DNA of 32,000 bases, from assembly GCA_038858525.1 (NCBI GenBank), contig JAWCFL010000004.1:30001-62000 (forward strand), in the 5' to 3' direction. The position numbers and the translations under genes were made by a program. This DNA is from Candidatus Jordarchaeales archaeon. Lineage in GTDB: Archaea > Asgardarchaeota > Jordiarchaeia > Jordiarchaeales > Freyrarchaeaceae. Numbering within the stretch: position 1 is the first letter of the stretch; the number at the start of each line of letters is the position of its first letter. This document shows positions 6,016 through 12,354 of this stretch, in pieces. The notes below the pieces were generated by a model, which was not told where the DNA came from, did not search any database, and saw nothing but the letters and a program-made list of their open reading frames with translations.

Positions 6016-6143
6016 GGGTCTGTGGCCTAGCCAGGATATGCTATAAACGCCTAAAGGCGCCGGCCTCCGGAGGGGTGTCTCGAGGAAAGCCGGAAAGCGA
6101 GGGTTCAAATCCTAAAATGGTGAAACTCCCTCCAGACCCGCCA
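6016..6143 (+). tRNA. tRNA-Arg(CCG) with three introns (21/22: 6039-6054; 37/38: 6071-6087; 59/60: 6110-6126); CCA encoded
   Basis: Spliced 78-nt sequence: GGGTCTG TG GCCT AGCCAGGATA AGGC G CCGGC CT CCG GA GCCGG AAAGC GAGGG TTCAAAT CCCTC CAGACCC G CCA. All four stems pair. Each intron has a BHB or relaxed BHB; 59/60 is perfect (TTCA/TGAA). Confidence 0.93.
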
Positions 6144-6197: not shown

Positions 6198-8090
6198 GTG
6201 GTGACAATAATGATCCTAACAGTTAAAGCGAAAATTGCAGATGCACTTTGGCATACGCTGAAAAAACTGGGCTTCTCAGTTTCGAGGGATGACGTATCGG
6301 AGCTACCTGAGCCCCCTGACCCTAGGCTAGGCGACATCTCCTCAGCTATTCCTCTTAAGCTTGCCCGCTCTCTGAAGCGTAAGCCGCTCGAAATAGCTCA
6401 GTCTATCGCTTTGAACTTTGAAAAGCCGGAGTTTGTTGAACGCGTCGAGGCCGCAGAGCCAGGATACGTAAATTTTTTCCTCGATAAGGTGAAGCTTGCA
6501 GGCGATGTTATAAGGACTGTTATGGAGGAAGGTGACCGGTACGGTTTCAGTAACGTAGGGGGAAAAAGAAAAGTTATTGTTGAGCATACCGCTGTCAATC
6601 CTACTAAACCATTACATATAGGTCATTTGAGGAATGCCGTCTTGGGTGACGTTGTCGCGAACCTATTAAGAGCTTGCGGCTGGAGGGTTGAAGTTCAGAA
6701 CTACATTGACGATCTGGGTCGCCAGATGGGTGTTTTAGTATGGGCTTTCCTAAACAACCTGCACCTAGAAGTTCCAAGAGAAAGAGACATGAAACTTGAC
6801 TTCTGGTATGGATTAGTATACGCCAAGGCTGCTCAGAAGCTTAAGGAGAACCCTGAACTGGAAGCTGAAGTGGATGAAGTTATGAAGCGAATGCTTAATG
6901 AAGATGAAGTGGCGCTCTTCAGCAGGAAACTCGCCGAGATGTGCGTAGAGTCAAACCTTGAAACCGCCGCTAGGGCAGGAATAACGTATGACCTGTTAGT
7001 TTGGGAGAGCGACATTTCAAAAGCCCACCTTTGGGAGCACGCCATGAATCTTCTCGAAAAATCAGAGCATTTCGTCTGGGAGACTGAAGGGGAATATAAA
7101 GGCTGCTTCGTTGCGAAGCTCAGTCACCTAGAAGAATTCAAGGACAAAAAGAACCCCGACAAGGTTCTCGTCAGATCCAATATGGTTCCAACATACGTGG
7201 CACACGACATAGCCTATCAGCTCTGGAAGTTCGGCATCCTTGAAACAGGCATGAAGTACCGCCCCTGGCATAGGCAGTTCAACGGGAAAGAACTCTGGAC
7301 AACTTCACCCATCCTCGCCACGCCCTCAAACAACTTCGCGAAAGCAGACGTCGTGATAAACGTCGTGGGGTATGAGCAAGAATACCTACAAAAAACGGTC
7401 AAAGTCTGCCTGAAGCTCCTAGGCCACTTGGAGCAAGCTGAAAACTCCATACATCTCTCATACAAACACGTTCAGCTCATGGGCGAAAAATTTTCTGGAA
7501 GAGAGGGAAACTGGGTGGGATACCACGCTGACGCCGTCATAAATCAGACCCTGCTGTGCGCATACGAGCAGGTAAGCAAAAACCTCCCTGAAGCATCAGA
7601 ACTCGAGAAGAGACAAATAGCGGAAATAGTGGCTGTGGGCGCTGTGAGATACTGGCTCACGAAGTTCAGCACAGAGCAAACAATAATATTCGACTATGGA
7701 AAAGTCACAAATTTCGACGGCGAAACCGGGCCGTACATACAATACGCGGCGGTGCGGGCGAAAAGCATACTTGAAAAAGCAGGAGAAACCCCCAGCCCGG
7801 AAATCAACCCAGAGAAACTCCTAGGTTCAAGAGAAATTGATCTCATTAAACACATAGCAAAGTTCCCTGAAGTGGTCCAAATATCAGCTAGGAACCTTAA
7901 ACCGAACATCCTAGCAGAATACACTTACCAGCTGGCAGTACGTTTCAACAAGTTCTACGAGGAATGCCCAGTTCTTACAGTCGACGATCCGGAGACCAGA
8001 AAAGCCCGCCTCGCCCTCGTACAGGCCGTTCTACAATCACTAAAGAACGCCATGAAAATACTCGGCATAGAAATACCGCCAAAAATGTAA
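6198..8090 (+). CDS. argS: Arginyl-tRNA synthetase
   Basis: NPTKPLHIGHLRNAVLGD (HIGH), GYVNF, NYIDDLGRQ, F.G.TGPYIQYA..RAKSIL and C-terminal DALR-type anticodon-binding domain. Confidence 0.97.
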   Translation: MVTIMILTVKAKIADALWHTLKKLGFSVSRDDVSELPEPPDPRLGDISSAIPLKLARSLKRKPLEIAQSIALNFEKPEFVERVEAAEPGYVNFFLDKVKLAGDVIRTVMEEGDRYGFSNVGGKRKVIVEHTAVNPTKPLHIGHLRNAVLGDVVANLLRACGWRVEVQNYIDDLGRQMGVLVWAFLNNLHLEVPRERDMKLDFWYGLVYAKAAQKLKENPELEAEVDEVMKRMLNEDEVALFSRKLAEMCVESNLETAARAGITYDLLVWESDISKAHLWEHAMNLLEKSEHFVWETEGEYKGCFVAKLSHLEEFKDKKNPDKVLVRSNMVPTYVAHDIAYQLWKFGILETGMKYRPWHRQFNGKELWTTSPILATPSNNFAKADVVINVVGYEQEYLQKTVKVCLKLLGHLEQAENSIHLSYKHVQLMGEKFSGREGNWVGYHADAVINQTLLCAYEQVSKNLPEASELEKRQIAEIVAVGAVRYWLTKFSTEQTIIFDYGKVTNFDGETGPYIQYAAVRAKSILEKAGETPSPEINPEKLLGSREIDLIKHIAKFPEVVQISARNLKPNILAEYTYQLAVRFNKFYEECPVLTVDDPETRKARLALVQAVLQSLKNAMKILGIEIPPKM

Positions 8091-8130
8091 TGTAAAAAGG
8101 TAATCATCTAAGTTTGGTGGGCGTTGTCAA

Positions 8131-8144
8131 AGAAAAGTTTAATA
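8131..8144 (+). promoter_or_regulatory. BRE/TATA promoter of tRNA-Arg(GCG)
   Basis: AGAAAAG-TTTAATA; the TATA box at 8138-8144 is centred about 28 nt upstream of G1 (8169). Confidence 0.6.
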
Positions 8145-8168: not shown

Positions 8169-8337
8169 GGGCCCCTCGCCCAGCTAGGATACTCAAAGCC
8201 TGACAGGGCGCCAACATTTAAGTGGCGCACGCCTGCGGTGGCTTCAGCGCAGAGAGCTGGTGGTCGCAGGGCGGAGGACTTCTCCTCCCGGCTAAGGGTT
8301 CAAATGGGGGTTCCCAGGGCAGATCCCGCGGGGCCCG
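8169..8337 (+). tRNA. tRNA-Arg(GCG) with five introns (20a/21: 8191-8204; 29/30: 8214-8230; 37/38: 8239-8254; 50/51: 8268-8295; 58/59: 8304-8322); CCA not encoded
   Basis: Spliced 75-nt sequence: GGGCCCC TC GCCC AGCTAGGATA GGGC G CCAGC CT GCG GA GCTGG TGGTC GCGGG TTCAAAT CCCGC GGGGCCC G. All stems are fully paired and each junction has a 4-bp BHB central helix. C9 is atypical. Confidence 0.9.
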
Positions 8338-8422
8338 TTAACTCTCTTATAAGCTCTTTTTGAGATTTACAGGAACTGAAAGCATTAGACATATATCTCA
8401 GAGCTCTGAGGAGGCGCTTTTC

Positions 8423-12216: not shown

Positions 12217-12354
12217 TGGTGGACCCCGCGGGATTTACTCAACCTTTTTTCTGGGTTTTTGAATTCGCGGCCCTCTTCAGGGCACCCGCGGCCTCCCGGG
12301 TGCGAACCGGGTGCTCATGGCGCCACAGGCTCTACCAGGCTGAGCTAGGGGCCC
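12217..12354 (-). tRNA. tRNA-Ala(CGC) with three introns (22/23: 12331-12316; 53/54: 12284-12264; 58/59: 12258-12235); CCA encoded
   Basis: Spliced 77-nt sequence: GGGCCCC TA GCTC AGCCTGGTA GAGC A CCCGG TT CGC AC CCGGG AGGCC GCGGG TTCAAAT CCCGC GGGGTCC A CCA. It has the G3:U70 Ala identity pair and A73, and a BHB central helix at each junction. Confidence 0.93.

Follow-up and report, generated by a model that had tools for sequence, protein, structure and literature searches.

How far can a tRNA gene be fragmented, and can a stretch of DNA in which intron outweighs exon still be the gene of a working tRNA? This question is raised by a locus in the window (the whole stretch of DNA that was analyzed, 32,000 nucleotides of contig JAWCFL010000004.1 from a Jordarchaeia (Asgard) archaeon), in which the initial annotation had recognized a tRNA-Arg(GCG) gene interrupted by five introns. 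Archaeal tRNA genes with up to three introns are described in the tRNAscan-SE 2.0 paper (PMC8450103). Here, a gene with five introns is weighed against a gene with fewer introns, a decaying relic, and a pattern produced by chance or by a protein-coding sequence.

Methods

The locus was analyzed with ARAGORN, with Rfam (at gathering scores and additionally at E-values up to 10) and with an exhaustive finder of our own. In brief, the finder search is anchored on the T-arm and requires a cloverleaf together with the usual invariant bases, while an intron may lie at any position, provided that a BHB central helix can form: leaving aside the last two bases of the exon and of the intron, the final four bases on each side must pair with one another. 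Only class I tRNAs were modelled, and the long variable arm of Leu and Ser tRNAs was initially counted as an intron. The same finder was run on the orthologous loci, ten of which were used for the comparison of stem pairs, as well as on the whole genome and on the reversed genome as a null.

Structure of the locus and of the spliced tRNA

The six exons (Table 1) add up to 75 nt and the five introns to 94 nt, over a locus of 169 nt. When the exons are joined, ARAGORN reports tRNA-Arg(gcg) as a perfect cloverleaf in which 21/21 stem pairs are Watson-Crick, and our own structural search likewise finds stems of 7/4/5/5 bp and loops of standard size with 0 mismatches and 0 G-U pairs. The finder, applied to the window, returned exactly these five introns (0 mismatches, 0 G-U). 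The initial annotation had placed five introns at these coordinates and had given a fully paired 75-nt cloverleaf, exons of 22, 9, 8, 13, 8 and 15 nt and 94 nt of intron; ARAGORN and the finder agree with it, and all of its numbers check.

Table 1. Coordinates of the tRNA-Arg(GCG) gene, its flanking features and the EndA genes (window positions, except for the EndA genes)
Feature	Location	Strand	Description
Arginyl-tRNA synthetase (ArgRS)	6198–8090	+	immediately upstream of tRNA-Arg(GCG)
ORF, 79 aa	8124–8363	+	covers the tRNA gene; spurious call
Candidate promoter	8129–8144	+	purine-rich BRE-like AAAGAAAAG (8129–8137) and TATA box TTTAATA (8138–8144)
Exon 1	8169–8190	+	22 nt; acceptor 5' strand 1–7, U8, C9, D-stem 5' strand, D-loop to 20a
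Intron 1	8191–8204	+	14 nt, 20a/21; central helix TAGG/CCTG; bulges AT/A (cut marked by the slash), AC/A
Exon 2	8205–8213	+	9 nt; positions 21–29: D-stem 3' strand, 26, 27–29
Intron 2	8214–8230	+	17 nt, 29/30; central helix GCGC/GCGC; bulges CA/A, AC/G
Exon 3	8231–8238	+	8 nt; positions 30–37; anticodon GCG at 34–36
Intron 3	8239–8254	+	16 nt, canonical 37/38; central helix CTGC/GCAG; bulges GG/T, AG/A
Exon 4	8255–8267	+	13 nt; positions 38–50: anticodon-stem 3' strand, variable loop, 49–50
Intron 4	8268–8295	+	28 nt, 50/51; central helix GGTC/GGCT (two G-U); bulges GC/A, AA/G
Exon 5	8296–8303	+	8 nt; positions 51–58: rest of T-stem 5' strand and T-loop TTCAA
Intron 5	8304–8322	+	19 nt, 58/59; central helix GTTC/GGGC (two G-U); bulges AA/A, AG/A
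Exon 6	8323–8337	+	15 nt; positions 59–73: T-loop end, T-stem 3' strand, acceptor 3' strand, discriminator G73
Oligo-T run TTTTT	8357–8361	+	20 nt past the tRNA
EndA paralogs	L020:1474–2049; L021:1189–1785	−; +	contigs C3, C43

All the bases required by the finder are present (U8, A14, G18G19, U33, a purine at 37, G53, T54, T55, C56, A58 and C61), and direct reading of the spliced RNA gives U8, A14, G18G19, A20, U33, C35, GTTCAAAT and C61. A20 and C35 are identity elements of arginine tRNAs. C9, which had been flagged beforehand as atypical, is indeed there; it is unusual for an archaeal tRNA, yet it is retained in four genomes. The CCA is absent from the 3' end of the gene as read from the sequence. 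The unspliced locus was matched neither by ARAGORN nor by Rfam at either setting, in line with the earlier expectation that standard tools would miss the gene. A split or permuted tRNA gene was ruled out, as the six exons are collinear on one strand within 169 nt, and so were self-splicing introns of group I or group II: judged by the room needed for a catalytic RNA core (hundreds of nt), introns of 14–28 nt are too short, and the region has no Rfam match.

Upstream, the center of the TATA box lies about 28 nt from the mature 5' end, a spacing as for archaeal BRE/TATA elements, and in an alignment of four orthologs the AAAGAAAAG-TTTAATA block is the sole conserved part of the upstream flank. 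We infer that this block is an archaeal BRE/TATA promoter, as had been proposed from its distance to the gene, and the oligo-T run downstream is a likely transcription terminator.

The nearest relative of the adjacent ArgRS is that of Candidatus Jordarchaeum sp. LHC_1308 (89% identity), and the relatives of this protein place the genome in Jordarchaeia. The neighborhood of ArgRS and tRNA-Arg(GCG) is conserved: the GCG gene is located downstream of ArgRS in all of the loci L002–L008, and only in L007 do the two genes share a strand, the others (L002–L006 and L008) having it on the opposite one. Directly upstream of ArgRS, a tRNA-Arg(CCG) gene was observed at 6016–6143 (+), with three introns (21/22, 38/39 or 37/38, and 59/60) and an encoded CCA, so that ArgRS is flanked by two cognate tRNA genes; the CCG gene is likewise found upstream of ArgRS in the Freyr-/Jordarchaeial loci L002–L004, L006 and L008.

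BHB motifs of the five introns

BHB geometry was found at 5/5 introns, each with a 4-bp central helix, two 3-nt bulges and a predicted cut after the second bulge base; on the exon side, each motif is made up of the six bases directly ahead of the intron. The five central helices named in the initial annotation, with the same cut position, thus all pair, and its statement that every intron has a closing pair or stem also holds, although the extent differs. Intron 2 is a full hBHBh' motif, with an exon outer helix AGG/CCT (positions 21–23 with 31–33) and a 2-bp intron helix (by eye). Intron 1 has a single C-G closing pair within the intron and is a relaxed BHB, and intron 3 of this genome has, beyond the central helix, one closing pair as its intron helix. 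Intron 4 forms a strong intron hairpin (−10.2 kcal/mol) and its exon outer helix, described before as weak, is essentially absent, while intron 5 has a 4-bp intron hairpin (−4.1 kcal/mol). Introns 1, 3 and 4 fit the relaxed motif forms described for crenarchaeal-type enzymes (HBh', hBH; PMC4090602).

When the whole precursor is folded without constraints, the MFE structure contains the BHB of intron 2 and none of the other four. We do not regard this as an argument against the model, since a fold in which all five central helices are imposed lies just 6.2 kcal/mol higher (−70.5 vs. −76.7 kcal/mol). As local hairpins, the five central helices are mutually compatible, while some of the flanking helices overlap: C32 and U33 are used both by the exon helix of intron 2 (21–23 with 31–33) and by the central helix of intron 3, intron 2 also interrupts the anticodon stem that flanks intron 3, and G51 is a bulge base of intron 4 as well as part of the flanking helix of intron 5. 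Since these shared bases and the split stem keep the five motifs from being complete at the same time, the introns might be removed during maturation in a fixed, or at least strongly favored, order, a proposal that we put forward tentatively and with more doubt than confidence. If it were true, the canonical 37/38 intron, gained last, would depend on the prior removal of an older non-canonical intron.

Orthologs and the history of the introns

Within the same genus, the locus L015/L023 has five introns at the same five positions (13, 23, 17, 28 and 18 nt; 75/75 exon and 78/101 intron positions identical), as does L024 (15, 16, 16, 32 and 18 nt; 73/75 and 72/99). The sister genus (L025/L007) has four introns, lacking only the one at 37/38 (10, 16, 30 and 17 nt; 72/75 and 51/80). 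Among the more distant loci, five Freyr-/Jordarchaeial genomes have three introns of 11–32 nt at 20a/21, 29/30 and 53/54, and L004 has four, at these three positions and at 59/60 (11, 23, 29 and 29 nt). Thus, in the three congeneric species the exons are 97–100% identical, while the introns are 73–77% identical and change in length. Exon 1 of L015 is identical to that of the window, and in L024 and L025 it differs by a single change, T17 to C. A 4-bp central helix with two 3-nt bulges is likewise present at every intron of the seven orthologs examined, and the central helices are paired in all orthologs without exception.

The intron at 20a/21 is common to all 10 orthologs (10–15 nt), the intron strand of its helix being CCTG or CCTA and always paired; in L025 it measures 10 nt and the central helix is closed by nothing but a loop. 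Also common to all 10 is the intron at 29/30 (16–24 nt; intron strand GCGC or GCGT). The 50/51 intron is present in the four genomes of the family, with a hairpin kept by differing sequences in L024 and L025, and the helix of the 58/59 intron has GGGC, GAAC or GAAT as its intron strand in the orthologs, always paired, again with a hairpin kept by differing sequences. The 37/38 intron occurs only in this genus (window, L015 and L024; intron strand GCAG, GCGG or GTAG, always paired) and was found neither in the sister genus nor in the six more distant orthologs. Because of this distribution, parsimony suggests that the canonical intron is the youngest and was gained within the genus. The series would then consist of two ancient introns (20a/21 and 29/30), two family-level introns of the T-arm (50/51 and 58/59) and one genus-level gain (37/38).

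This series bears on the number of introns. The gene could be real and contain only three or four separate introns, if some borders differ or if neighboring segments are handled jointly, all the more as the borders were set by the BHB rule and the intron helices of introns 1 and 3 are weak. Owing to a repeated G, the 37/38 border comes out one base away in a plain spliced alignment, and three other D-loop solutions are obtained for intron 1 once the helix rule is relaxed, but these alternative borders do not yield the standard D-loop kept in the orthologs, and the exhaustive search gave no solution with fewer introns, all alternatives also having five. Since the sister genus lacks the 37/38 segment alone, the segments are separate units, and we regard a smaller number of introns as improbable.

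Conservation of the tRNA and search for a second gene

Two-sided compensatory changes were found in 6/21 stem pairs among the 10 orthologs, with zero non-pairs. They include the pairs 28–42 and 29–41, which lie across introns, and the acceptor pairs 4–7, which join exon 1 with exon 6; for instance, C28-G42 is replaced by T28-A42 in L025, the two partners being located in exons parted by introns. Such compensatory changes would be the signature of a working spliced tRNA, and of neither a relic nor an accident.

The initial annotation had considered that an intact tRNA-Arg(GCG) might exist elsewhere in the genome. None was found by blastn or by the finder, in a genome that is 92.7% complete and from which about 33 tRNA genes were recovered, so the single-copy status is not strict. 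The sole long blastn match elsewhere (C3:63445–63475) belongs to a tRNA-Arg(TCG) gene and was rejected as a second GCG gene. Three further “Arg GCG” solutions of the finder, at C3:86695, C4:78788 and C9:30542, were discarded as well, having 5–7 introns and spans of 468–616 nt, i.e., the same class as the hits in the null; two of them have a mismatch and five G-U pairs, and C3:86695 has seven introns. A scan for other GCG loops by anticodon-loop pattern gave 1457 matches and was uninformative. The codons CGT and CGC together amount to about 10 per 1000 codons.

A decaying or non-functional gene, no longer spliced to a working tRNA, would account for the atypical C9 and for the relaxed state of several BHBs, but it would hardly keep its exons 97–100% identical in three species while the introns diverge with indels, nor show compensated stem pairs and a conserved promoter block, and a search of the genome, in which CGU/CGC codons are used, gave no further Arg(GCG) gene. 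We therefore consider a relic very unlikely, even more so than a lower number of introns.

Chance expectation in the reversed genome

With 0 mismatches allowed, the whole genome gave 14 compact loci with 1–5 introns and 17 long AT-rich solutions with 6–7 introns. At the same setting no solution with five or fewer introns was obtained from the reversed genome, which gave 14 long solutions of the AT-rich kind with six or seven introns. When one mismatch and up to five G-U pairs were permitted, 34 five-intron pseudo-hits appeared in the reversed genome, all with a mismatch, at least one G-U pair and a span of at least 291 nt, compared to 0, 0 and 169 nt at the Arg(GCG) locus. A relaxed rule (one terminal mismatch in the central helix) combined with a filter for compact and GC-rich loci yielded 33 real loci and 0 in the reversed genome.

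The search space is large and five free deletions could force a cloverleaf on GC-rich DNA, as the 34 pseudo-hits at relaxed settings illustrate, and the ORF noted in the initial annotation does cover the region, but a chance or coding origin is the least credible reading of all, given that the null, at 0 mismatches, contains no hit with up to five introns, that the orthologs exclude chance, and that the intron indels are not multiples of three (L015 differs from the window by −1, +6, +1, 0 and −1 nt), which would break any reading frame.

Splicing enzymes and proposed maturation

Two EndA paralogs, each with both Pfam domains (191 aa and 198 aa), are encoded in the genome, along with RtcB. The best match of the 191-aa protein is the catalytic subunit of Aeropyrum pernix (3P1Z_B, E-value 1.6e−48), and the catalytic EndA has a 9-residue loop (IRKPKTPQF) that aligns to the A. 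pernix enzyme, while the 198-aa paralog is without the catalytic His and without this loop. The pair fits a crenarchaeal-style alpha/beta, two-subunit type in an Asgard genome. This type of EndA has been linked to non-canonical and relaxed sites (PMC4090602, PMC3241643), and two EndA paralogs are reported for most genomes in a preprint of October 2026 (10.64898/2026.10.13.758758). The relaxed introns 1, 3 and 4 would depend on this predicted broad specificity.

Taken together, we consider it highly probable (about 0.93) that 8169–8337 (+) is the functional, and apparently the only, tRNA-Arg(GCG) gene of this archaeon, with five BHB introns that are spliced as follows. Transcription probably starts from the BRE/TATA element at 8129–8144 and would yield a precursor of at least about 170 nt, in which each intron, together with the six exon bases directly before it, would form a BHB or relaxed BHB. 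The two-subunit crenarchaeal-type EndA (catalytic alpha and its non-catalytic paralog) would make ten cuts, each directly behind the second base of a bulge. With RtcB as the ligase, the six exons would be joined into the 75-nt product that would read the CGU/CGC codons, and CCA would follow as a later addition. The anatomy, the conservation, the covariation and the enzyme genes are read from the genomes themselves, and it is from these that we infer how transcription, cleavage, ligation and the order of removal may proceed.

Comparison with known multi-intron tRNA genes

The ceiling of three introns from which the initial annotation had argued is outdated. In Atabeya-/Freyarchaeial genomes 92–95% of the tRNA genes are interrupted according to Valentin-Alvarado et al. 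2024 (PMC11291895), whose tables run to four introns per gene (PMC11291895, Supplementary Data 4). The 2026 preprint, which covers 90 Asgard genomes and whose three focal families include Freyrarchaeaceae and Jordiarchaeaceae, gives 2.2 intervening sequences per gene and “up to five in a single gene” (10.64898/2026.10.13.758758). A full-text literature search for archaeal tRNA genes with five introns gave nothing beyond this preprint. Five introns match the largest number on record for a tRNA gene, and the remark in the initial annotation that five would be exceptional is out of date. As the preprint already reports up to five introns in families that include this genome, the tRNA-Arg(GCG) gene is no new kind of gene; it is a well-supported case that reaches the known maximum, and the trait itself had been described in this lineage before.

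The gene resembles those of the two Asgard surveys (PMC11291895, 10.64898/2026.10.13.758758) in its lineage, in which nearly all tRNA genes are interrupted and mostly at non-canonical sites, in introns that standard tools miss (above all in the D-arm), and in the two-paralog EndA. In contrast to the surveys, the present analysis is one worked example, with exact borders and the BHB anatomy at ten splice sites, together with an ortholog series of 3, 4 and 5 introns. As far as the work of Sugahara et al. 2007/2008 is conveyed in PMC4090602 and PMC8450103, Thermoproteales (Pyrobaculum, Thermofilum, Caldivirga) share BHB and relaxed-BHB introns, non-canonical positions and a heterotetramer-type EndA of broad specificity. 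Their introns can also be closely spaced, so that tRNAscan-SE must excise one before the next motif appears (PMC8450103). However, the maximum in Thermoproteales is three introns (PMC8450103), compared to five here, and the Arg(GCG) gene belongs to an Asgard archaeon rather than to a crenarchaeon. The multi-intron nuclear tRNA genes of Cyanidioschyzon merolae belong to a eukaryote, with three introns in tRNA-Ile(UAU) (PMC9602550), and some genes of this alga are permuted, whereas the Arg(GCG) gene is collinear (PMC3728597, PMC9602550).

With six exons of 8–22 nt and more intron than exon, the locus is a comparatively validated case in which the fragmentation of a tRNA gene reaches its upper limit. 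It would also be a good substrate on which an archaeal endonuclease could be tested for ten cuts in one 169-nt RNA, and for the order of these cuts.

Other tRNA genes of the genome

Every one of the recovered tRNA loci (33/33) has at least one intron, and most have 2–4 after the Leu/Ser correction, while genome-wide only 10 tRNAs were counted with ARAGORN and 8 with the Rfam tRNA model. As the Arg(GCG) locus shows, annotation in the Jordarchaeia lineage loses essential tRNAs, and false ORFs are put in their place. About a dozen expected tRNAs are missing from the finder output too; their splice motifs are probably more relaxed, or the acceptor stem is itself interrupted by an intron.

Of the recovered genes only two reach five introns, tRNA-Arg(GCG) and, apparently, tRNA-Tyr(GTA). 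The best class I solution for the latter (C3:78516–78740 (+), 225 nt) has five introns and 0 mismatches, at positions 20/21, 37/38, about 43/44, 48/49 and 59/60, the borders in the variable region being ambiguous. The tRNA-Arg(TCG) gene (C3, about 63400–63520 (−)) has its D-arm sequence in common with tRNA-Arg(GCG) and an apparent intron right after position 8 or 9, near the acceptor stem. In the window itself, the same finder located a tRNA-Ala(CGC) gene with three introns at 12220–12354 (−), and near-identical tRNA-Ala(TGC) genes, also with three introns, are located at C3:49448–49582 and C1:25881–26022.
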